DNA from: a virus
DNA length: 17,932 nt
Direction: 5' to 3' (one strand)
UHGV virus genome: UHGV-1599718
In this document: piece after piece, positions 2,951-17,097 of the stretch
Layout of the letters: each line of letters opens with the position of its first letter
How positions within the stretch are numbered: position 1 is the first letter of the stretch
The notes under the pieces: generated by a model
Told to the model about the DNA's origin: nothing
The model's input: the letters and a program-made list of their open reading frames with translations, nothing else
Databases searched by the model: none
Made by a program: the position numbers and the translations under genes

Positions 2951-3351
2951 TTGGTATCCCCTGGTACTTCACCAAGACTAAGATCAAACCCAATTTCGTC
3001 TTTAACTGACTGCGGCAACAGCTCCCACGTCTGCGCACACAAAAATTCATCGGTGCCATAACGCTCAACAAAGCGAGCACAATTACTCAGGGGAGGGTGA
3101 CGAACGGCAATATGCGGAGGCACGCGCCCACCACCAGGCACAACACCGCGATGATGTGGTGCGCACAACCCAAAGCTATGGAAGTGGCAATTCTCATCAA
3201 CGCTGCCGTAATCAGGATCGTGATGTAGCTCCGTCCACAGCTCTGGATTCTCAATTTCACGGCCATCAATAATGCAAGCTATGCAACCCACGTGAGTGAG
3301 CACCGCTTGTATATAAAGTTTCTCTTTCTTCGTTGGTGTACGTCCGTTCAT
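2947..3351 (-). CDS. putative HNH-type nuclease, Ref (recombination enhancement function)-like (134 aa)
   Basis: Cys/His-rich pattern (HVGCIACII ... HHDPDYGS ... CHFH ... CAPHH) consistent with an HNH/Ref-like fold. Start overlaps the upstream stop. Confidence 0.45.
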   Translation of the reverse strand: MNGRTPTKKEKLYIQAVLTHVGCIACIIDGREIENPELWTELHHDPDYGSVDENCHFHSFGLCAPHHRGVVPGGGRVPPHIAVRHPPLSNCARFVERYGTDEFLCAQTWELLPQSVKDEIGFDLSLGEVPGDTK

Positions 3352-3584: not shown

Positions 3585-4096
3585 TGATGGCCCCCGTCAT
3601 TTCTAGTGCTTTTCACCGTGCGGCTTCTTAAAAACCTGCCATCACGAACAACAGACACTTCTCGTTTACCCAACCTCATTTCACGGCGGTAACATTCAGA
3701 AAATGCCTCGTCCGGCATCATATAAATGCGACGCTTCGCCTCCGTATCCAGAAGGGAACGGCTTGGGGTTACATATAAGAACGACTCATCAATAGGGACA
3801 AAACCACGAGCAAGAATTGCTGGCAGAATGCCAGGAAGAACGCAGAAAACAGCTCCACGATGCAGCAACATCTGGTACTCCATGACCTCCGTTATCCCCG
3901 TGACGACTGTTACGGTGTCACGTCTGTTACGGCTGGCAACCAGTCGCTGCACACGTCCAATTTTCTGATCTACAGATAGATGTTTGCTATCGTTATCAAT
4001 ATGATCGATAACAAATCCTTTAATCGTTTGATCAAGGTAGTGCACCACCTGCGATTGAATCTGGTGATTATCACCAAAGAAGGCCAGAATCATCAT
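3581..4096 (-). CDS. hypothetical phage protein (171 aa)
   Basis: ORF with ATG at 4096 overlapping the stop of the Cro-like gene; no family recognised. Confidence 0.55.
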   Translation of the reverse strand: MMILAFFGDNHQIQSQVVHYLDQTIKGFVIDHIDNDSKHLSVDQKIGRVQRLVASRNRRDTVTVVTGITEVMEYQMLLHRGAVFCVLPGILPAILARGFVPIDESFLYVTPSRSLLDTEAKRRIYMMPDEAFSECYRREMRLGKREVSVVRDGRFLRSRTVKSTRNDGGHQ

Positions 4097-4587
4097 TCCT
4101 CAAGCCTCCCAAGTGCTGAACGCCGGGCGTTGCTAATCTCCTTATGAATCAGCTCGATATCGCTGGAATCTTTATTCTTAAGCTCCAGCACGGCAATCGC
4201 ATCACGAACCTCTGAAACGGTTACGTGTGAGTGTTTCCAGCGAGCAATGAATCGCGGACCGCGTAGATTGCAACGCTCCGCAGGCATCCCCAGCTCAGAG
4301 AAAACCGCTTTCAGCCTTGATAAGCAGTTAACAGGGAGATTCCCTTTGATCTTGTTCTGCCGAACCGATGTGCCATCGCTACGCTGGCGCTGACGTTCGG
4401 CAAAATCTGCCGCCCATTGCTGGACGTTAATCCGGCCTTCCGAATACGCCACCAGCAGCGTCAGGTTATCCGCACGAGGGAATCTCTCGAAGCGATACCA
4501 GGCACCAATCAGTGATGACGTAAAGCCAAACTTTCTGGCAACACCAATTTGGCCTCCATTTTCGTCAACCCACTCCTGAAAGGTCAT
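4093..4587 (-). CDS. Cro-like HTH DNA-binding protein with C-terminal extension (164 aa)
   Basis: First gene of the leftward operon, divergent from the CI-like gene. GGAG RBS 9 nt upstream of ATG 4587. N-terminal HTH-like segment GQIGVARKFGFTSSLIGAWYRFER. Confidence 0.55.
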   Translation of the reverse strand: MTFQEWVDENGGQIGVARKFGFTSSLIGAWYRFERFPRADNLTLLVAYSEGRINVQQWAADFAERQRQRSDGTSVRQNKIKGNLPVNCLSRLKAVFSELGMPAERCNLRGPRFIARWKHSHVTVSEVRDAIAVLELKNKDSSDIELIHKEISNARRSALGRLEE

Positions 4588-4606: not shown

Positions 4607-4642
4607 ACCACGATATGTGGTATTAAAACCACATATCGTGAG
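4607..4642. promoter_or_regulatory. tandem operators O1 (ACCACGATATGTGGT, 4607-4621) and O2 (ACCACATATCGTGAG, 4628-4642)
   Basis: Two 15-bp ACCAC-N5-GTGGT dyads with centres 21 bp apart, between divergent CI-like and Cro-like genes. On the minus strand they fall in the spacer and -10 region of a TTGAAA-N17-TTTAAT promoter candidate. Confidence 0.6.
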
Positions 4643-4709
4643 TTTTTCAATGGGCGAAACAAAAAATAACCTTCTATTTGTGGTCCACCTCTCGTCTTAC
4701 CATGTGAAA

Positions 4710-4724
4710 ACCACTAAATGTGGT
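4710..4724. promoter_or_regulatory. operator O3 (ACCACTAAATGTGGT) upstream of the CI-like gene
   Basis: Same dyad architecture, 38 bp upstream of the start at 4762; adjacent TATAAA at 4729-4735. Confidence 0.55.
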
Positions 4725-4761
4725 AATGTATAAATAACCCACCATTCACGATTGATGAGAC

Positions 4762-5418
4762 ATGAAAAGCAACGACGAGAACATCAAGAAAGAAATAGGT
4801 CTGCGCATTCAGACTCTACGGAAACAATCCGGCATGACTGCCGGAGATCTCCAGCAAGTCACTGGAATAGGCTTAAGCACCTTGCAGAACTATGAGGCCG
4901 GATTAAGACAACCATCTATACCTGCCATCAAGAAAATCGCGCACGCCCTGAAAGCATCAGCGCCTTATATCGCGTGCTTAACAGATAACCCGTTCCCACC
5001 CCAGAATACTAACGCTCCTGTTATTCCTGGGCTTGTAGCTATAAAAAATGACATAGCATCGCACGCCGGAGAAAAACCAGTGCTGGCGATAGAACAGGAG
5101 ATTCTACGAAGCAAGAACATCAACCCATCGTCTCTGTCAGTTCTCCAGAGCAACGATGAGTTAATGTCACCAACAATATCCCCTGGCTCCCAAGTCCTGA
5201 TTAATACAGACGATACAGAGATTCATGAGGGGATCTATGCCCTTGAAGACAGAAATGGCCTGGTTGTTTTGAGGCACTGTAGAGTCATACCGGGTGACAA
5301 TGCTGTTATGCTGTCAACCGAAAGGGATGCTGAAATGAACACTAAGCATCTGAATAACGAGGAATTTAAGCGTTATAAAGTTCTTGGCCGCGTAGTTAGT
5401 GTTGTCAACTGGTTATGA
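4762..5418 (+). CDS. CI-like prophage repressor (HTH_XRE N-terminal domain plus S24 LexA-like peptidase C-terminal domain, 218 aa)
   Basis: HTH segment IGLRIQTLRKQSGMTAGDLQQVTGIGLSTLQNYEAG. C-terminal region ELMSPTISPGSQVLINTDD ... GDNAVMLS ... KVLGRVVSV matches the Ser/Lys autopeptidase layout of LexA/CI proteins. Confidence 0.8.
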   Translation: MKSNDENIKKEIGLRIQTLRKQSGMTAGDLQQVTGIGLSTLQNYEAGLRQPSIPAIKKIAHALKASAPYIACLTDNPFPPQNTNAPVIPGLVAIKNDIASHAGEKPVLAIEQEILRSKNINPSSLSVLQSNDELMSPTISPGSQVLINTDDTEIHEGIYALEDRNGLVVLRHCRVIPGDNAVMLSTERDAEMNTKHLNNEEFKRYKVLGRVVSVVNWL

Positions 5419-5460
5419 TACACAGCACGGCGAAAGCCGTGCATTTCTACGCTCAAAAAA

Positions 5461-5475
5461 ACCACATTTTGTGGT
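5461..5475. promoter_or_regulatory. operator O4 (ACCACATTTTGTGGT) upstream of the 5511 gene
   Basis: Same dyad, immediately followed by TTGACA (5477-5482) and TATAAA (5494-5499), 36 bp before the ATG at 5511. Confidence 0.5.
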
Positions 5476-5510: not shown

Positions 5511-5885
5511 ATGGAATTACATACAGCCAATAAAAACGAAACTCTGATCACTGCTGGAATCGAAATCCAAGCGTTGAACATAGCGATTGAGTGTATGTTA
5601 TGCCAACTCATTGATAATGAGAAAGATATCGACTGGATAGAATCTATCCTTCATCTGGCATCAGAACAAAAAGTCTGCCTCAAAACGGCCTTACAATACG
5701 ATGTGCCAGCGGTATCGAAGCTGTGCCAGTCATTGATGGCATATAACAGGGCTATTATTTCTGTATGCCTCATGATTCTCGATGAAAACACCCCTCTTAG
5801 CGACCGCTCAGAAGCTGCTCTAACCCTCTCACGTAAACAGCGACAGCTAGCAAATCAACTGATATCAACGATAGCTGACCTCTGA
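5511..5885 (+). CDS. hypothetical protein (124 aa), unknown function
   Basis: ORF with AGAGG RBS; operator O4 upstream and a terminator hairpin downstream. Confidence 0.6.
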   Translation: MELHTANKNETLITAGIEIQALNIAIECMLCQLIDNEKDIDWIESILHLASEQKVCLKTALQYDVPAVSKLCQSLMAYNRAIISVCLMILDENTPLSDRSEAALTLSRKQRQLANQLISTIADL

Positions 5886-5890
5886 CTGCA

Positions 5891-5908
5891 AGCGGGCTAA
5901 CGCCCGCT
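5891..5908 (+). terminator. stem-loop, candidate terminator after the 5511 gene
   Basis: agcgggc-taac-gcccgct directly after the stop at 5885, followed by an AT-rich run (ttatatgattat). Confidence 0.5.
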
Positions 5909-6013
5909 TATATGATTATAGATTTATATAATTATATAAAACGCTTTTCATCCGCCAAAAAGTTGGTTATGCTTATCTCATTCTATAAATATAGATTTAT
6001 AGAATTATATAAT
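5908..6013. promoter_or_regulatory. two AT-rich repeat clusters (copies c at 5908-5939 and d at 5982-6013) upstream of the ParA gene; candidate operator or centromere-like site
   Basis: ttatatgattatagatttatataattatataa and tctataaatatagatttatagaattatataat; TCTATA-AA-TATAGA is a perfect palindrome. Confidence 0.4.
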
Positions 6014-6035
6014 CAAACACATGGAGTCTCGACAA

Positions 6036-6689
6036 ATGACTATATCTGTAGGTATTTTCAACGGAAAAGGCGGCGTAACCAAATCAACCATTGCTCGTGC
6101 TTTAGCAGTTGCTTATGCAAAGGCTGGCTGGAATGTATGCCTGATCGATATGGATGTGCTTAACGGAACGGTAACGCGTTGGGTACAACGCAGAATGGCC
6201 AACAATATCGAACCTGCAATCGCGGCGCAGCCGTGCGGCACGCCATCACAAGTCCAGAAAATCATCGAATCAGAAGTATACGACCTGGTTATCGTTGATG
6301 GCGGTGCCTACGCATCTGAATCAGTACCGAAGCTATCTGAATTTCTGGATATGGTTATTTTGCCAACCAGATTCTCTACCGATGACCTGGAAACCACCGT
6401 TAACACTGCTCACGGTATCGTTAAAAAGGGTGTACCAATCAAGAAAATTTGCATGGTGTTTTCCGGCGCGGCTGAAAACGAAGCTGACTATATTGAAGCC
6501 CAAGAGTACCTGGCTAATACGCCATACTTTGTTGTTGATAAGTACATTCCCCACAAGCCAGCTCTGAGCAAAGCTCAGGATAAGGGCTTAAGCCTCATTG
6601 AGTGCTCATACGTTGCGCCACGCAAAAAGGCAGACGACGTTATTCAGGGGATTATCAACCAGCTTGAGGCTCTGACTACTGCCGCGTAA
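6036..6689 (+). CDS. parA: ParA/ParF-type partition ATPase (deviant Walker A)
   Basis: GKGGVTKST deviant Walker A at the N-terminus and DLVIVDGG Walker B-like motif. ATG 6036 has GGAG 9 nt upstream; the track start at 6021 lacks an RBS. Confidence 0.85.
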   Translation: MTISVGIFNGKGGVTKSTIARALAVAYAKAGWNVCLIDMDVLNGTVTRWVQRRMANNIEPAIAAQPCGTPSQVQKIIESEVYDLVIVDGGAYASESVPKLSEFLDMVILPTRFSTDDLETTVNTAHGIVKKGVPIKKICMVFSGAAENEADYIEAQEYLANTPYFVVDKYIPHKPALSKAQDKGLSLIECSYVAPRKKADDVIQGIINQLEALTTAA

Positions 6690-6720
6690 TATATAATTAT
6701 AGTTTTATAGATTTATATAA
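6688..6720. promoter_or_regulatory. AT-rich repeat copy e between the ParA gene and its partner
   Basis: aatatataattatagttttatagatttatataa starting at the ParA stop codon. Confidence 0.4.
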
Positions 6721-6732
6721 GAGGGGATACAC

Positions 6733-6981
6733 ATGGCCGCACCATCAAAACCACCAAAGAAGAACAGCAAAGGCGTACCGCCATCGATCGAACAACCGCA
6801 GGTTTTCGACCCGACTGAAACGCCAACCAGAACCAAATCAGGTGGGGCACAAATGGCGTTTAACGTCGACCCTGAATTTAAACGCGAGTACAAAACGTTC
6901 GCCAGCTCAATGGATATGTCATTGAAAGAAGTGCTGACAAAATCTTTTGAGTTACTCAAGTCTCAATACAACCAGAAGTAA
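6733..6981 (+). CDS. ribbon-helix-helix DNA-binding protein, ParG/Omega-like partition or regulatory partner (82 aa)
   Basis: Strong RBS AGAGGGG. Disordered basic N-terminus followed by an RHH-like C-terminus (AFNVDPEFKREYKTFASSMDMSLKEVLTKSFELL), immediately downstream of the ParA gene. Confidence 0.55.
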   Translation: MAAPSKPPKKNSKGVPPSIEQPQVFDPTETPTRTKSGGAQMAFNVDPEFKREYKTFASSMDMSLKEVLTKSFELLKSQYNQK

Positions 6982-7193: not shown

Positions 7194-7209
7194 ATTCAAC
7201 CATAAAAAA

Positions 7210-7225
7210 GGCCCCCGAAGGGGCC
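7210..7225. terminator. bidirectional intrinsic terminator
   Basis: ggcccc-cgaa-ggggcc flanked by an A-run on the left; on the minus strand the stem is followed by ttttttatgg. Confidence 0.5.
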
Positions 7226-7231
7226 TAATCG

Positions 7232-7354
7232 CTACTTGCTGCTAATGTTTATCGTCACATTCAGAGCGTTATCAGTAATCTTCCAACCCTCCCCATGTGG
7301 CGTAAACAAAGCTCCAGTAACAACGATAAAAATACACATACAGTATTTTTTCAT
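7232..7354 (-). CDS. possible small hydrophobic peptide (40 aa); speculative
   Basis: Internal ATG of ORF 7232..7414 gives MKKYCMCIFIVVTGALFTPHGEGWKITDNALNVTINISSK; ends at the minus-strand face of the 7210-7225 terminator. Weak RBS. Confidence 0.2.
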   Translation of the reverse strand: MKKYCMCIFIVVTGALFTPHGEGWKITDNALNVTINISSK

Positions 7355-7752
7355 TGTATGGCCCTTACAGGCCGTTTCACGGCATCCCCACCGACGAAAA
7401 CAACGCGAGAGCAAGCACGGCTGCTTGTGCTTGCATGTACGGCAACGGAGAATCCTCCCCTAAAGTCGGTGCCCGGGTGCGAATCGGCGGGAAGGTCCAC
7501 AGGTATTTTACGATTATTTTAAGATTAGTAATAGGAAAGAAATTAAACGAAAAAACTCGTTTATTTTCACAAAATCAGTAACCTACCCACAATCTGTGAG
7601 TTTGCAGGCACAACAAGAACCACAATTTTTTGAAGCATAATAGTGGACTATTATTACCTTTTGGGTAAAATTAACTTGCTGCTTGTGCTTGCGTGGTTGT
7701 TTATACAACAACGTAATGCTGAAAGGACCGCGAATCCGATCAGCACGAAAGA

Positions 7753-7779: not shown

Positions 7780-7925
7780 TTTCTGCCTACCAATAAACCC
7801 ACGCTATGTGGTTGTCTCTGTTAAAATCCCGCCGTATTGACATGAATGCGCCATTGGTGGACACTTTCCGAGCCGTAGCAAAATCTACGGTCGGGATTGG
7901 AACCCCGATAATCATCATGGCGCAT

Positions 7926-7946
7926 ACCGCGTTAGCGGTTTTTTTA
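7926..7946 (+). terminator. intrinsic terminator candidate in a non-coding region
   Basis: accgc-gtta-gcggt followed by TTTTTTT. Confidence 0.5.
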
Positions 7947-8110
7947 TGCGTAAAGCACTGCTACACCCAAATTATGGTGGGGCGTGCGGGGGAGTCGTAA
8001 GACTCGCCGGATTCCATGGTGACCGGTAGTTCCAACCCTGTACGTCTCACCACCCAATGATTGGAACCAGACGGTGGTGAGTATCCTTAACCTTTAAGGG
8101 AACTATCACC

Positions 8111-8302
8111 ATGACAAACTTACCCCATGACTATTACGTCAACCTCGTAAAGATCCTTCTCAAGAAAGCCTCATACGCCGATAAATTACGCTTGGCTGAA
8201 ATCATCGAGCGCGAAGCTATGCGCATCGCCAGCAACGATAACGCTGTTTCTGACGCAAAAATCTCCCTCGTAACCAAAGTAGTTATGGGAGGTGCAAAAT
8301 GA
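8111..8302 (+). CDS. small hypothetical phage protein (63 aa)
   Basis: ORF whose TGA overlaps the ATG of the downstream Rha-like gene (ATGA); weak RBS. Confidence 0.45.
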   Translation: MTNLPHDYYVNLVKILLKKASYADKLRLAEIIEREAMRIASNDNAVSDAKISLVTKVVMGGAK

Positions 8303-9441
8303 AAACGCTTCCGACCGTTAACACCCTACAGCCTATCCTGCATAACCAGATCCCCGTTATCACTAGTGAACTTCTGGCGCAGTTATACGGAACAAAAATC
8401 AAAAACATTTCTGATAACTTTCTGAACAACTCGACGCGATTCGTAGCCGGAAAGCATTACTTTAAAATTGAAAAAAACGAATTACGCGAGTTCAAGAACA
8501 GACCCGAAACAATCGGGTTAGTTGGTAAAAATGCCCGCTCCCTAATTCTCTGGACCGAACGCGGGGCTGCACGTCACGCTAAAATGCTCGAAACCGATCA
8601 GGCGTGGGATGTATTCGAACGGCTGGAAGACTGCTATTTCAACCAGAACGCGCAAACGGCCGCGACCGTAACCGTCTCGCCAAACAATGCTCGTGAGGTT
8701 GTCGATACGCTCAACGCCAAACCGATGTTTTACATTAAGGTGTGCAATAACGAGCCACTCACAACCTCAGCCGATGTTGCCCAGGCATTCAGCACCACAA
8801 ACAATTCCATCGTTATGGCCATCGATGCGTTACGCATTCCTCGCACAGCTGCGGCACGTCATTTCTTTAAAGAGCAACGACCGCTGGAAGGAAGCGACCG
8901 CGAAATAACAATCTATCGCATGACAAAAGATGGATTTACCTTGCTCATGGAAAGTATCGACGGTCCAGGCGTGAAAGATATCAAGCTGGCCTACATTGAA
9001 GCCTTTAACGCTATCAGCAGCGTGTTAAAAACACAGTACGAGCGTGATCTGGCTAAACGACTGTACCAGGAAAAAACGATTATCCGCGCGGCAACAGAGC
9101 ATAATCGGCTATTAACGGAACCGAACTACAGGAAGGAACTAATCAAGGAGTTTGACAAGGCAACAGGGAAAACCAAAGCGGCGCTAAATCTGCCAGCAAT
9201 GACTCAGGAAAATGTGATATCAGCCTTACTTCTTGATCTGCTCAGAAACGCCAGAGCACTTATCAGCTTTGACGAAAACCTGAATCCTCAGCTCAAGCTA
9301 CTACCACCGACAGGCAAAGTAGTCGACCAGGCTGATCACAACAGCATACTCAGCGTTCTGGATGCAAACCTGCCAGCCAGGACACTACAGGATCTGATAA
9401 AAACATGTGCTGATAAGCTGGCACAGAAAAGCAGACCATAA
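8299..9441 (+). CDS. phage regulatory protein Rha family, antirepressor-like, with N-terminal ORF6N/KilA-N-like domain (380 aa)
   Basis: GGAGG RBS. N-terminal region (IPVITSELLAQLYGTKIKNISDNF ... SLILWTERGAARHAKM) resembles the ORF6N domain. Central region (PLTTSADVAQAFSTTNNSIVMAIDAL ... ITIYRMTKDGFTLLMESIDGPGVKDIKLAYIEAFNAI) resembles the Rha domain. Confidence 0.75.
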   Translation: MKTLPTVNTLQPILHNQIPVITSELLAQLYGTKIKNISDNFLNNSTRFVAGKHYFKIEKNELREFKNRPETIGLVGKNARSLILWTERGAARHAKMLETDQAWDVFERLEDCYFNQNAQTAATVTVSPNNAREVVDTLNAKPMFYIKVCNNEPLTTSADVAQAFSTTNNSIVMAIDALRIPRTAAARHFFKEQRPLEGSDREITIYRMTKDGFTLLMESIDGPGVKDIKLAYIEAFNAISSVLKTQYERDLAKRLYQEKTIIRAATEHNRLLTEPNYRKELIKEFDKATGKTKAALNLPAMTQENVISALLLDLLRNARALISFDENLNPQLKLLPPTGKVVDQADHNSILSVLDANLPARTLQDLIKTCADKLAQKSRP

Positions 9442-11130: not shown

Positions 11131-11430
11131 TCAGATGTTAAACGCTATTCGTTTTCCTGTGGGAAGCTCAACATCCAGGCTTAATTTGCCTCCCATAGCT
11201 TCAACGTAACGCTTTAATGTCGCCAGCTTTAAATCATTTCCGCGCTGCTCCAGCTTTGTTACTGCTGGCTGGCTTATACCCATCGCCTCAGCAACCTGTT
11301 TTTGTGATAACTGGAGTTCTTCACGCATCATCTGCAAGCCGACCTCAAGAATCATCTCATCTGCCATTTCTTTAATTCGCGCCTGGCTTTCCGGTGAACG
11401 GCTGGCAATCGCCTCATCTAATGTTCTCAT
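11131..11430 (-). CDS. HTH (XRE-type) antitoxin, HigA-like addiction-module antidote protein (99 aa)
   Basis: HTH segment LQLSQKQVAEAMGISQPAVTKLEQRGNDLKLATLKRYVEAMGGKL; start overlaps the toxin stop (TAATG). Confidence 0.7.
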   Translation of the reverse strand: MRTLDEAIASRSPESQARIKEMADEMILEVGLQMMREELQLSQKQVAEAMGISQPAVTKLEQRGNDLKLATLKRYVEAMGGKLSLDVELPTGKRIAFNI

Positions 11431-11777
11431 TACTTGCTCTCCAGTGTGTTCAGATGTGCTGCAAACTCATCCTCAGCTATACGCACCAGTTTTTCATAAA
11501 ACCGCTTATCGTTACTTTTGTCTCCTGCACAAAGAACGATGGCCCGGCGAATCGGATCGAACGCATAAAAGGCTCTTATCGGACGGCCAGAAAACTGAAC
11601 GCGAAGCTCTTTCATATTTTTGTACCGAGAACCTTTTACGGTATCGGCATATGGCCTGGGTAACTCAGGTCCGTAAACCTGTAGCTTTTTCAAATCAGCC
11701 AAAACCTTTTCCTGAAGAGCGTCTTCTTGCTCATTTAGCCAGTCGTCAAATCGCTGGCTAAAAAGTACCGTCCACAT
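11430..11777 (-). CDS. RelE/ParE-superfamily toxin, HigB / Gp49-like addiction-module killer protein (115 aa)
   Basis: ATG at 11777 with AGGA RBS (the track start at 11783 is TTG). Motifs WLNE..., RAFYAFDPIRRAIVLCAGDK, FYEKLVRIAEDEF and the toxin-first gene order match HigB-type killer proteins. Confidence 0.7.
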   Translation of the reverse strand: MWTVLFSQRFDDWLNEQEDALQEKVLADLKKLQVYGPELPRPYADTVKGSRYKNMKELRVQFSGRPIRAFYAFDPIRRAIVLCAGDKSNDKRFYEKLVRIAEDEFAAHLNTLESK

Positions 11778-11786
11778 GCTCAATCC

Positions 11787-12388: not shown

Positions 12389-14358
<1,970 letters not shown>

Positions 14359-15374: not shown

Positions 15375-16223
15375 TTAATGTTGGAGTGATTTCCAGGTCT
15401 TTCTTAGCCTGTTATAACGCTGCTCAACGAGGGATCGTAAATATGCAAGGTCAGCACCAGGATACATGCCATCAGCAAATTCCTGACTAACCTCTCTGGT
15501 GATTTGATGACGAAGTTCGGCCTCTCCCTTTTCACGAACAAGACGCGCAGCTCTCTCCGCTGCTTTCTGTTTTGCCTTTATCTCTCTGGCCGTCTTCCTC
15601 TGACGCCATACATTCTCCATCTGCTCCTGAATAACAATACGCTTATAATCAGCCTCCGTTATCGCTTTTTTAAGCCGTTCGCTATTCTTCGCATTGAAGT
15701 AATTAAGTTTCTGGCTAACCGCACGTCTCCATGCTTGTTCAGTAATACCAACGGTTTCCAGCAGTTGATCACGAATCTCTATTTTCGCTGGCCAATACTG
15801 TTTATTCACCCGATCCCAGCGACGTTCATAATCAATAAAACCTAACGCTTTCAGTTGCGACAACGCCCTTGTACAGCGCGTTATAGACTTGTTCCCAGCT
15901 TCGGATACGGTAGACAGGCCGCAAAAATCAGCCAACGCCTCAGCACTGGCCAGAACCCGCTTAGAAATGATGTTTACATGGTGCAAAATCGCAGCAATCA
16001 CAGCATTAATCGCCCGACGACGATGCTCGTTTATCCGGCGTTTCCGCTCTGACGGTTGATTAACGTAGAACGCAACCTCACACGTAAGATCACGACCATT
16101 AATGCGCTGTAAAGCATCAGATAATACCAGCGGCAGCTTGTGCGTATGGTGCTTTGGAGGCTGGAACTCCGGCGACAAATTACAAACGTAAGCTGAACGT
16201 AGAGACGGCATTGGTCTATCCAT
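15375..16223 (-). CDS. repA: IncFII-type plasmid replication initiator RepA (RepFIIA family, about 283 aa)
   Basis: Segment RRRAINAVIAAIL ... ADFCGLSTVSEAGNKSITRCTRALSQLKALGFIDYERRWD aligns by eye with R100/R1 RepA1 (RRRAIDALLQGL ... AIECGLATESAAGKLSITRATRALTFLSELGLITYQTEYD). Start placed at MDRPMPSL (16223); an in-frame upstream ATG at 16361 would add 46 aa and may instead be a leader ORF. Confidence 0.8.
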   Translation of the reverse strand: MDRPMPSLRSAYVCNLSPEFQPPKHHTHKLPLVLSDALQRINGRDLTCEVAFYVNQPSERKRRINEHRRRAINAVIAAILHHVNIISKRVLASAEALADFCGLSTVSEAGNKSITRCTRALSQLKALGFIDYERRWDRVNKQYWPAKIEIRDQLLETVGITEQAWRRAVSQKLNYFNAKNSERLKKAITEADYKRIVIQEQMENVWRQRKTAREIKAKQKAAERAARLVREKGEAELRHQITREVSQEFADGMYPGADLAYLRSLVEQRYNRLRKTWKSLQH

Positions 16224-16267
16224 ATGTTCGCTCTTGCGTCCACGGAAAACCAACGTATAATGGGAGT

Positions 16268-16353
16268 TGTCGAGGCGCCCATGGATTGTTGTTGGTTTTT
16301 GTTTCTTTCCGTGGATGTCGCAAGAAGCCCGCAGATTTATCTGCGGGCTTTTT
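16268..16353 (+). ncRNA. candidate CopA-like antisense RNA of the repA leader
   Basis: Plus-strand TTGCGT (16234-16239), 16 bp spacer, TATAAT (16256-16261), then about 85 nt ending in the hairpin agcccgcag-atttat-ctgcgggct plus TTTT (16326-16353). Antisense to the region upstream of the repA start. Confidence 0.45.
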
Positions 16354-16397
16354 GTTTCCATATCTGGTCACTTTTCAACCAGACACCCACAATCATA

Positions 16398-16412
16398 ACC
16401 ACGTTACGTGGT
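16398..16412. promoter_or_regulatory. operator O5 (ACCACGTTACGTGGT) in the repA promoter region
   Basis: Same ACCAC-N5-GTGGT dyad as O1-O4, about 175 bp upstream of the repA start, adjacent to a TATGAT -10 candidate on the minus strand. Confidence 0.5.
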
Positions 16413-16542
16413 TTTAAGAGAACTCTACCACAACACTTTCGGTCATGCACGAAGTCTCTCACTGATCGAACGATAATCCACCAGTAAAAGGATCTAAATT
16501 GGATCTCGTTTTGCGAGCATCATACTACTGGCCTAACTCCAG

Positions 16543-17097
16543 TCAATGATTCCCAGCCGGAAACCTGCGGTAAAGCGTGGATAAGGTAACATCGAAGATA
16601 ATCGCTATCCGCTTACGTGAAACACCATTCGCAATAAGCCTTCCGATCTGTTCCCATTGCTCTGGTGCCAATTTTGAGCGGCGTCCTCCTATCCTGCCGT
16701 TAGCCCTTGCCACCGCCAATCCTGCACGCGTTCTTTCAATCATATTTTCCCGCTCCATCTCTGCGACTGCACTCAGCATCGTGTAGGCAAAGCGGCCAAT
16801 TGAAGTGCTAATTTTTATCCCTTCCGTAATCGAAATAAACTCAATGTTGTTTGATAAAAAATAGTTTAGTAAATCAACAAGATGAATCAGAGAACGCCCC
16901 ATTCGGTCCAGCTTCCAGACAATAACCGTATCGCCCGGCCGTAACACCTTCAGTAGCTTATCAAGTCCTGGTCGTTTTGATTTAGCACCGGATATTTTAT
17001 CTTCAAAAATCCGGTCACATCCTGAACTCCTGAGCGCCTCCAATTGTAATTCCAAATTCTGGTCAAAAGTTGACACCCTCGCATAACCATATTGCAT
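16543..17097 (-). CDS. serine recombinase, DNA invertase of the Hin/Gin/Cin/Pin family (184 aa)
   Basis: N-terminus MQYGYARVSTFDQNLELQ with catalytic-Ser context; VWKLDRMGRS; C-terminal HTH (RKRIAIIFDVTLSTLYRR). Near-collinear by eye with e14 Pin. Confidence 0.9.
   Translation of the reverse strand: MQYGYARVSTFDQNLELQLEALRSSGCDRIFEDKISGAKSKRPGLDKLLKVLRPGDTVIVWKLDRMGRSLIHLVDLLNYFLSNNIEFISITEGIKISTSIGRFAYTMLSAVAEMERENMIERTRAGLAVARANGRIGGRRSKLAPEQWEQIGRLIANGVSRKRIAIIFDVTLSTLYRRFPAGNH

Follow-up and report, generated by a model that had tools for sequence, protein, structure and literature searches.

The DNA analyzed here (hereafter, the window) is a stretch of 17,932 nucleotides of the UHGV virus genome UHGV-1599718, and it forms part of a circular myovirus phage-plasmid of about 48 kb. 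It contains a family of 15-bp dyads of the form ACCAC-N5-GTGGT, and we consider it likely that these dyads are the operator set of the lysogeny repressor of the element, a CI-type protein encoded at 4762-5418. The initial annotation of this stretch had described four such dyads between 4607 and 5475, that is, O1 to O4, and had read them as a complete and compact genetic switch. All four are present at the places given there. The switch is not confined to that interval, however, because the same operator also lies at 16398, in what is predicted to be the promoter of repA, the plasmid replication gene, and at 7798, upstream of an antirepressor operon. We call these two sites O_rep and O_ant, and we regard the link of the operator to repA as the most interesting part of the finding. 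The six predicted operators are listed here with their scores in the weight matrix described below.

4607-4621, no strand: O1, ACCACGATATGTGGT, perfect dyad, 29.9 bits
4628-4642, no strand: O2, ACCACATATCGTGAG, two mismatches in the right half, 23.0 bits
4710-4724, no strand: O3, ACCACTAAATGTGGT, perfect dyad, 25.7 bits
5461-5475, no strand: O4, ACCACATTTTGTGGT, perfect dyad, 30.8 bits
7798-7812, no strand: O_ant, CCCACGCTATGTGGT, one mismatch, 21.7 bits
16398-16412, no strand: O_rep, ACCACGTTACGTGGT, perfect dyad, 30.8 bits

The exact pattern ACCAC-N5-GTGGT occurs four times in the 17.9-kb window (the fourth copy is O_rep) against 0.01 expected, and none of 200 dinucleotide shuffles reached four copies. 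In contrast, the pattern allowing up to two mismatches was uninformative, with 9 occurrences in the window against 5.3 expected. That is, the expectation that the motif exceeds shuffled sequence held for the exact dyad and failed for the two-mismatch pattern, and since the latter is no better than chance, O2 is not justifiable from the window alone. The low-stringency pattern scan was replaced by a 21-bp weight matrix built solely from divergent relatives of the element. Scanning the whole window and shuffled controls with this matrix, a check that the initial annotation had named, gave six sites of at least 21.7 bits (21.7-30.8); the next best sequence reached 10.3 bits and the maximum over 200 shuffles was 15.9. 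Since both the exact-match count and the six sites are far above the shuffles, a chance origin of the dyads is excluded. In the structural-gene half of two complete genomes, the matrix scan found no sites. The extended operator consensus is AAAACCAC-RWWWY-GTGGTTTT.

Six relatives, with a repressor identity of 60-66% and a DNA identity of about 68%, were compared with the window; their sources are Salmonella, Citrobacter freundii, C. amalonaticus, Klebsiella aerogenes and a Yokenella-type contig. O1-O4 stand at the same positions in all six, and O_rep does too wherever the locus includes repA. The centres of O1 and O2 are 21 bp apart in the window, as had been noted at the outset, and in every relative. 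At the position of O2, every relative has ACCAC-N5-GTGGG, with one mismatch. In the alignment of the 172-174 bp between cI and the early gene from seven lineages, 28 of the 30 half-site columns are invariant, compared with 3 of the 15 spacer columns and 57 of the 129 columns elsewhere (Fisher p = 3e-7 and 1e-6 for the invariance of the half-site columns). The same is seen within the E. coli clade, where the spacer of O4 varies (ATTTT, GATTT, GCTTT) with intact half-sites and variation in O_ant likewise falls in the spacer and spares the half-sites. This pattern of conservation is as would be expected for a protein-binding dyad with a free spacer, and the view that the dyads form a real operator family is thus borne out.

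A search of IMG/VR with the O1-O2 tandem pattern revealed no independent relatives sharing the operators only: 12 of the 45 loci belong to this family and most of the others look GC-rich. The loci L020, L024 and L046 have flanks richer in A/T; L020 and L024 were inspected, and neither has an adjacent helix-turn-helix (HTH) gene. A literature text search for ACCAC/GTGGT returned mostly unrelated work, and its top match mentions operators without this motif.

The placement of O1, O2 and O3 on the predicted promoters of the immunity region is the next piece of evidence. The features concerned are as follows.

4622-4650, minus strand: predicted early (lytic) promoter P_L, with -35 TTGAAA (4650-4645), a 17-bp spacer consisting of AA and O2, and -10 TTTAAT (4627-4622)
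4721-4729, plus strand: predicted extended -10 of the cI promoter, TG-G-TAATGT (TGGTAATGT), overlapping the right half of O3
4668-4684, no strand: asymmetric variant AACCTTC-TATTT-GTGGT, its centre 42 bp from that of O2 and 40 bp from that of O3, about halfway between the two

Read along the minus strand, the order is -35, AA and O2, -10, O1, a GGAG Shine-Dalgarno sequence and the ATG at 4587. O2 thus occupies the spacer of P_L, and O1 abuts its -10 and covers about -6 to +9, including the predicted start at about 4615. The hexamers are kept in the relatives as TTGAAA/TTGATA/TTGCTT and TTTAAT/TTATAT. These would be classic positions for repression, in agreement with the initial placement of the two sites over a leftward promoter. 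A consensus promoter scan missed P_L because the scanner requires A at the second position of the -10. The leftward operon encodes a 164-residue protein, a Ref-type nuclease and DUF1064 and DUF3560 proteins, and in the relatives holin, lysozyme and methyltransferase genes; from this gene content we take it to be the early/lytic operon. Binding to O1 and O2 may plausibly be cooperative, since the 21-bp spacing, which puts both on one face of the helix, is conserved in seven lineages.

O3 had also been placed correctly upstream of the CI-like gene. It lies 38 bp upstream of that gene and overlaps the extended -10, which is conserved in the seven-lineage alignment as TGGTAATGT/TGGTAAAGT/TGGTAAGGT. 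Because of this overlap, occupancy of O3 should shut off the repressor gene, that is, it should give autoregulation. The start of the cI transcript is predicted near 4736.

The asymmetric variant at 4668-4684 is conserved in all seven lineages. The sequence AACCTTC-N5-GTGGT recurs upstream of the holin/lysozyme genes in every relative (at 7970 in locus L001, with equivalents in L002-L006). This second copy sits in a nested palindrome, TAACCAC-N5-GAAGGTT ... AACCTTG-N6-GTGGTAA, and is followed by a conserved region of about 150 nt and a strong terminator; the region resembles a late promoter with an antitermination-type leader. The variant itself may be a weak repressor site or a site for another regulator.

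The dyads might instead act in RNA, as hairpins or terminators; for example, O1 and O2 together could form a stem of 13-14 bp with a T-tail on both strands. A terminator scan did flag 4608-4641 on both strands, with a fold energy of about -22 kcal/mol, but such folding is common to all pairs of tandem dyads. L005 and L006 have non-complementary spacers, and internal loops break the stem there with the half-sites fixed, in line with the freely varying spacer columns and constant half-sites of the alignment. In addition, the transcript predicted from P_L starts inside O1 and would be without the hairpin, and the single dyads, with a 5-nt loop and a 5-bp stem, are too weak as terminators. We rejected the O1-O2 terminator because the complementarity of the spacers is not conserved, and a role of the dyads as RNA structures seems to us hardly credible.

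If the dyads are bound by a protein, the two products of the divergent genes are the right candidates, as the initial annotation had suggested.

4762-5418, plus strand: CI-type repressor of 218 residues, with an XRE HTH N-terminal domain and a LexA-fold C-terminal domain
4093-4587, minus strand: first gene of the leftward early operon, encoding 164 residues, with a putative Cro/YdaS-like N-terminal domain and a C-terminal domain of no known function (phrog_7452)

The repressor has a Cro/C1-type HTH (Pfam HTH_3, E 4.5e-11, above the cut-off), and it matches phage repressor PHROGs over its full length (phrog_4). The Peptidase_S24 match of 18.4 bits is below the cut-off of 23.3 bits. In Foldseek searches with the AlphaFold model, the N-terminal domain matched SinR, C.BclI and the N-terminal domain of P22 c2, and the C-terminal domain matched LexA (template modelling score, TM, 0.74), UmuD' (0.73) and lambda CI (0.66-0.68); the full-length matches were a lambda-186 hybrid, 186 CI, lambda CI and LexA. 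A sequence-profile search of the PDB gave HTH domains only. Residues 9-75, which make up the whole HTH, are nearly invariant across the family and the C-terminal domain diverges. The nearly invariant HTH fits the invariant half-site.

The C-terminal domain seems to lack the catalytic Ser-Lys dyad for RecA-stimulated self-cleavage. The sequence DELM(S/A)PTI, in register with the S24 motif G-D/N-S-M-x-P, puts Leu134 at the position of the catalytic Ser, and LRHCR puts Arg171 at that of the catalytic Lys; neither residue varies within the family. Leu134 and Arg171 are also placed there by a MAFFT alignment with hand-entered sequences of LexA and lambda CI. Thus, the domain seems to be an inactive peptidase that has been retained for dimerisation or oligomerisation, a situation reported for the CB repressor of N15 and phiKO2. 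Since Leu and Arg replace Ser and Lys, the repressor should not cleave itself, and induction should therefore go via an antirepressor, that of the module 3 kb away.

The 164-residue protein gave no Pfam or NCBIfam match (nor did the 124- and 171-residue proteins of the element) and no confident structural match, and its structure model is poor. By tblastn (E 3e-8 to 2e-3), its residues 1 to about 70 match the small genes that run divergently from cI in Vibrio phages. One of these cro-position genes matches YdaS_toxin at 29.9 bits and also P22_Cro, and another matches the PHROG of the 164-residue protein itself. By this transitive route, and with moderate confidence, we consider the protein a Cro-type domain, distantly Cro/YdaS-related, fused to a C-terminal domain of no known function. 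It is a candidate lytic repressor acting on the same operators.

The same Vibrio phages allowed us to follow the dyad over a greater distance. The closest repressor homologues outside the family are 25-30% identical and belong to Vibrio and Aliivibrio phages. K303 has a perfect ACCACAAAACGTGGT upstream of cI; CTGC-N5-GTGGT sites, similar to the asymmetric variant at 4668-4684, flank it at spacings of 22 and 42 bp. PhiPS02 and the locus L069 have ATCAC-N5-GTGGT, L069 having ATCACGTTTTGTGGT upstream of cI and ACCACTTTTCGTGAT just downstream of it (position 3153). The H905 group has ACAAC-N5-GTTGT together with CCGC-N5-GTGGT. A perfect dyad would arise by chance in about 200 bp with a probability of about 2e-4. 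Three loci, L054, L056 and L069 (PhiPS02, K303 and a related IMG/VR contig), keep the cassette of cro-like gene, operators and cI, with proteins 25-34% identical. The dyad thus appears to belong to a conserved cassette of cI, cro-like gene and operators. Since such distant homologues retain the geometry of the operator and an almost identical half-site, the cassette may be useful for studies of the conservation and drift of repressor specificity. Covariation of recognition helix and half-site is unusable within the family, where both are invariant, and a hint comes only from the ACAAC-N5-GTTGT of the H905 group.

These distant phages were once taken to leave CI as the sole factor common to all loci with the dyad, the 164-residue protein being absent from them. 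This argument was withdrawn, as tblastn relates the N-terminus of that protein to their cro-position genes.

It is conceivable, then, that the Cro-like protein binds the dyads mainly or alone, or splits the sites with CI, and that CI recognises another sequence such as AACCTTC-N5-GTGGT. The N-terminal domain of the 164-residue protein is as conserved as the HTH of CI (75-76% overall identity), in the Vibrio phages it is found together with the dyad, and the second, asymmetric class of motif needs a binder. But the early operon of a lysogen must be repressed by the product of the rightward gene, and we assign the symmetric dyads to CI because they cover the lytic and repA promoters, which a lysogen must hold down; dyads at P_L and repA fit a maintenance repressor. 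The assignment also draws on the behaviour of Cro in N15, phiKO2 and PY54, which binds one site only and not the repA operators. Symmetric dyads 21 bp apart, moreover, suit a dimer with an oligomerising LexA-fold domain. Taken together, these points make the Cro-like protein a distinctly unlikely main binder, and we keep to CI as the protein for which the dyads serve as operators.

A host factor or another protein of the element, such as the 124-residue product of the gene at 5511 or a partition protein, might also bind the dyads, which would then have no role in immunity. O4 lies directly upstream of the 124-residue gene and near the par operon. The par region, however, has an iteron family of its own (TTATAGAT/TTATATAA), and the 124-residue protein is the least conserved candidate (49-62%) and has no homologue that could be detected in the dyad-bearing Vibrio phages. 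To our knowledge, no E. coli regulator has the consensus ACCAC-N5-GTGGT. This explanation is very improbable, and CI remains the preferred binder.

O4 requires separate consideration. Two features flank it.

5425-5449, plus strand: terminator-like hairpin after cI, GCACGGC-GAAA-GCCGTGC followed by ATTTCTA, the T-tail being stronger in the relatives
5511-5885, plus strand: gene of no known function downstream of O4, encoding 124 residues (phrog_7632), 49-62% identical in the relatives

Every lineage has its best consensus match at O4, which scores about 33 bits in every relative. It lies 18 bp past the hairpin and 35 bp before the start codon at 5511. The initial annotation had placed it over the promoter of the 5511 gene, and this part is not supported, as the stretch from the cI terminator to that start codon has no recognisable conserved sigma-70 promoter. 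The 124-residue gene is possibly regulated by the repressor. O4 could instead be a distal anchor from which a loop to O1-O3, at a distance of 751-854 bp, would sharpen repression. In lambda and 186, the OL-OR and FL/FR sites sharpen repression by looping in this manner, and the present repressor has, in its C-terminal domain, the fold of lambda and 186 CI, which mediates higher-order assembly in those phages. The rank of O4 as the best match in every lineage and the A/T tracts that flank it in place of promoter hexamers also favour an anchor. The distant Vibrio relative L069 likewise has a dyad just downstream of cI, and therefore the position of O4 itself appears to be conserved. On the other hand, the equivalently placed OL sites of N15 regulate the promoter of the next gene, and O4 is only 35 bp from the start codon at 5511 and next to a conserved Shine-Dalgarno sequence. 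We judge a pure anchor function somewhat unlikely.

We now turn to O_rep and the replication gene.

15375-16223, minus strand: IncFII-family replication initiator RepA, with the probable start at 16223 in an open reading frame (ORF) that is open to 16361
16392-16430, minus strand: predicted repA promoter or promoters, with an extended -10 TG-G-TAGAGT (16430-16422) and an alternative -10 TATGAT (16397-16392)

RepA matches Pfam IncFII_repA (PF02387) with E 1.3e-43 and NCBIfam RepA_IncFII_LM (NF040977) with 231 bits against a cut-off of 70. The longest ORF, starting at 16361, probably overcalls the gene; the ATG at 16223 (MDRPMPSL) fits the relatives better, and the family match begins only at about residue 55 of the longest ORF. 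O_rep lies at about +4 to +18 from the TAGAGT promoter, or in the spacer of the promoter with TATGAT as its -10, and is thus in the core promoter either way. The repA transcript is predicted to start near 16415 and/or 16385. The sequence TGnTAGAGT is conserved in four lineages, and O_rep is conserved in L002, L003, L004, L005, L043 and L051 with varying spacers. Hence the same operator motif stands at the immunity region and at the predicted repA promoter, as it does for the N15 CB repressor.

The repA leader (16223-16397, minus strand) is strongly structured (fold z = -6.3), and a conserved hairpin within it, at 16328-16356, is a good terminator on the plus strand. This hairpin suggests a CopA-like antisense RNA. 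Rfam gave no CopA match in the leader even at a relaxed threshold, and the partial matches were terminator-like only. We noticed no CopB-like ORF between the neighbouring invertase gene and repA, where no systematic search was made. That gene, which encodes a Hin-type DNA invertase (16543-17097, minus strand), stands directly upstream of the repA promoter region and, in the relatives, near tail-fibre genes. Read-through from it could supply basal repA transcription.

The sixth site, O_ant, precedes a secondary immunity module.

7872-9441, plus strand: secondary immunity module, consisting of isrK (7872-7945), a C4 antisense RNA (7970-8057), an ORF of 63 residues (8111-8302) and the antirepressor gene (8299-9441)

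Rfam identified C4 with 84.3 bits (gathering score 45) and isrK with 70.2 bits (gathering score 50). The 63-residue ORF overlaps the start of the antirepressor gene, whose 380-residue product matches antirepressor PHROGs and Pfam ORF6N and Phage_pRha. The operon is thus built like immI of P1, with C4 ahead of a small ORF and an antirepressor gene. A conserved TTGACA promoter, predicted at 7838, precedes isrK and would drive the whole module. O_ant lies about 60 bp upstream of the start of isrK and is followed by an extended -10-like sequence, TGTTAAAAT (7819-7827). All loci of the E. coli clade have it, as does L005 of C. amalonaticus (ACCACAATGCGTGAT). We regard O_ant as a probable operator that is not universal. 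No LexA boxes were found in the window.

Several points weigh against the assignment of all these sites to CI. All the promoters are predicted, and binding and regulation are deduced from positions and homology. cI, the cro-like gene and the dyad co-occur in every relative, including the Vibrio phages, and since both genes travel with the dyad, comparison does not separate the two proteins. The model of CI is moderately confident (predicted local distance difference test, pLDDT, 72). The Leu/Arg assignment rests on the motif register and on the MAFFT alignment with the hand-entered sequences, and when the family profile was compared with LexA and lambda CI by hhalign, no alignment of the C-terminal domain resulted. 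O4 is without a recognisable promoter by consensus scan and manual inspection in five lineages. O_ant is absent in L002-L004, the Salmonella and C. freundii lineages; where present, it is upstream of the conserved TTGACA promoter, at a distance of about 25 bp from its -35, and the sequence of the extended -10 upstream of that promoter is not conserved.

With CI as the binder, the sites may work together as follows. In the lysogen, repressor dimers on O1 and O2, probably bound cooperatively, would block the leftward early promoter, and repressor on O3, over its own -10, would give negative autoregulation. Repressor on O_rep, in the repA core promoter, would limit transcription of the initiator and hence the copy number. 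In the E. coli clade, repressor would also occupy O_ant upstream of the isrK-C4-antirepressor operon. On O4, it would control the 124-residue gene, serve as a loop anchor to O1-O3, or both. The Cro-like early protein (4093-4587) would probably compete for some of the same sites. Induction would go via the antirepressor, itself restrained by the C4-type antisense RNA, and inactivation of the repressor would derepress the early operon and repA together.

We speculate that the lysogeny repressor took over the role of CopB at an IncFII-type replicon, so that a single protein with a single operator sequence sets the copy number in the lysogen, and that its inactivation by the antirepressor leads to runaway repA expression that serves as lytic replication, with no separate lytic replicon. 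We put this forward tentatively, with somewhat less than even confidence. If it is true, lysis-lysogeny and copy number would be switched by one and the same device, in an element that is common in E. coli, including ATCC 25922. The proposed operator map covers the early promoter, repressor autoregulation, the antirepressor operon and the replication initiator of a widespread and unstudied phage-plasmid, and it gives a testable model of copy control coupled to lysis and lysogeny, a coupling so far worked out mainly for N15 and P1.

Among known systems, the logic of this predicted circuit matches that of N15 CB, built from different parts. The CB repressor of N15 and phiKO2 binds three OR and two OL operators, and its OL sites overlap the repA promoter and lower the copy number (PMC4488713, PMC4997575). 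CB is likewise without self-cleavage residues (PMC4488713, PMC4997575). As in N15 and phiKO2, dyad operators here lie between divergent repressor and lytic genes, the repressor appears to lack self-cleavage residues, and an antirepressor operon stands under an RNA of the C4/CA type (in N15 immA, with a small processed RNA). Operators directly downstream of the repressor gene are shared with N15, in which OL follows cB, as O4 follows cI here. In contrast, the two repressors are 24% identical (pairwise E 7e-5), and the N15 operators are 16 bp long with the pattern TA-N10-TA, so that the ACCAC-N5-GTGGT dyads are not members of that set by sequence. N15 is a linear siphovirus plasmid with a protelomerase gene and a large RepA. 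The plasmid of the present element is circular and that of a myovirus; its RepA is of the IncFII family and has a structured leader, presumably under antisense control, and its replication operator is 11 kb from cI, not adjacent to it.

The immunity region resembles the switches of lambda, 434, P22 and 186 in its two-domain repressor of HTH and LexA fold, in dyads within a divergent promoter region of about 170 bp, in neighbouring sites about two helical turns apart, in an operator on the repressor's own promoter, and in a gene at the Cro position that is the first of the lytic operon. It differs from them in the apparent replacement of the catalytic Ser and Lys, with which no RecA-stimulated self-cleavage is expected, and in having 2 + 1 symmetric sites plus an asymmetric one, not OR1-3. 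The protein at the Cro position has 164 residues with an extra domain, and operators are also found at the plasmid replication gene and the antirepressor operon.

P1 and P7 are, like this element, circular myovirus plasmid prophages with operators of the primary repressor scattered over the genome. As here, their immI region (c4-icd-ant) encodes a C4 RNA and a small ORF that overlaps the antirepressor gene, and an operator of the primary repressor (here a predicted one) precedes it; in P1 immI the operator arrangement is Op51/P51a. P1 C1 has no relation to the XRE/CI proteins; it binds as a monomer, and its sites are asymmetric and 17 bp long. The plasmid replicon of P1, with its iteron RepA, is not controlled by C1, whereas the lytic replicon is; here, unlike in P1, the plasmid replicon itself carries an operator.

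With the IncFII plasmids R1 and R100, the element shares an IncFII-family RepA, a repressor-binding dyad (here predicted) inside the repA promoter, and a long structured leader ending in a hairpin that is a terminator on the opposite strand. In classical IncFII plasmids, CopB represses the repA promoter, and CopA antisense RNA acts in addition. Unlike in those plasmids, the operator here would be that of the phage repressor, and among PLSDB plasmids the replicon DNA was found only in this phage-plasmid family. A repressor without autocleavage residues and an antirepressor gene outside the immunity region are also known from Gifsy GfoR/GtgR, 186 Tum and N15 AntC (PMC3121763). Those antirepressors are LexA-controlled, whereas control here would be by the C4-type RNA and possibly by the repressor itself.

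As for the element as a whole, the 2-kb region around the dyads is 99.8% identical to Yersinia phage vB_YpM_41, a circular genome of 49 kb, and the phage-plasmid has also been isolated as virions infecting Yersinia pestis. With the same region, PLSDB gave 61 plasmids, of which 58 (46-51 kb) are 95-99.6% identical and 3 about 68%. They are mostly from E. coli, and also from E. albertii, E. fergusonii, Klebsiella and Salmonella, and all are non-mobilizable. The plasmid NZ_CP009073.1 of E. coli ATCC 25922 (48,488 bp) is a member of the family, with a repA region 97.8% identical, and this standard reference strain would thus be a convenient host for experiments. Nearly every gene of vB_YpM_41 is annotated "hypothetical", as are, almost throughout, the records of this phage-plasmid. 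The better-annotated relatives carry genes for a P2-like contractile tail, terminase, portal, capsid, ParA and an IncFII-family RepA, and for this reason we regard the element as a circular myovirus phage-plasmid. Literature text searches returned no study of vB_YpM_41 or of the regulation of this phage-plasmid. The pSLy3 group was considered as this element and rejected, since it is of the SSU5 type. A profile search of genome contigs with the repressor alignment gave no confirmed relative.

Some other features of the window were also observed. At lower coordinates than repA, a HigB/HigA-like toxin-antitoxin pair lies at 11131-11783 on the minus strand (Gp49-family toxin, 11430-11783; HTH_3 antitoxin, 11131-11430) and is kept in the relatives. 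It is followed by an IS21-family insertion at 12389-14358, with an IstA-like transposase (12389-13561) and an IstB ATPase (13558-14358); in the relatives L002-L005, the DNA from the toxin-antitoxin pair to repA has neither a transposase gene nor an IstB gene. A full-length Rfam match to ryfA RNA (142 bits, gathering score 80) is located at 7204-7500 on the minus strand, between the par genes and the antirepressor operon, and a dyad-like sequence upstream of it, at 7586-7600, scores 10.3 bits, which is sub-threshold. The TTATAGAT/TTATATAA repeats of the par region are phased at 8 bp and form clusters at 5908-5939, 5973-6020 and 6689-6728. These clusters flank parA (6021/6036-6689) and precede an ORF of 82 residues (6733-6981), and they are likely to be a partition centromere or operator unrelated to the ACCAC dyads.

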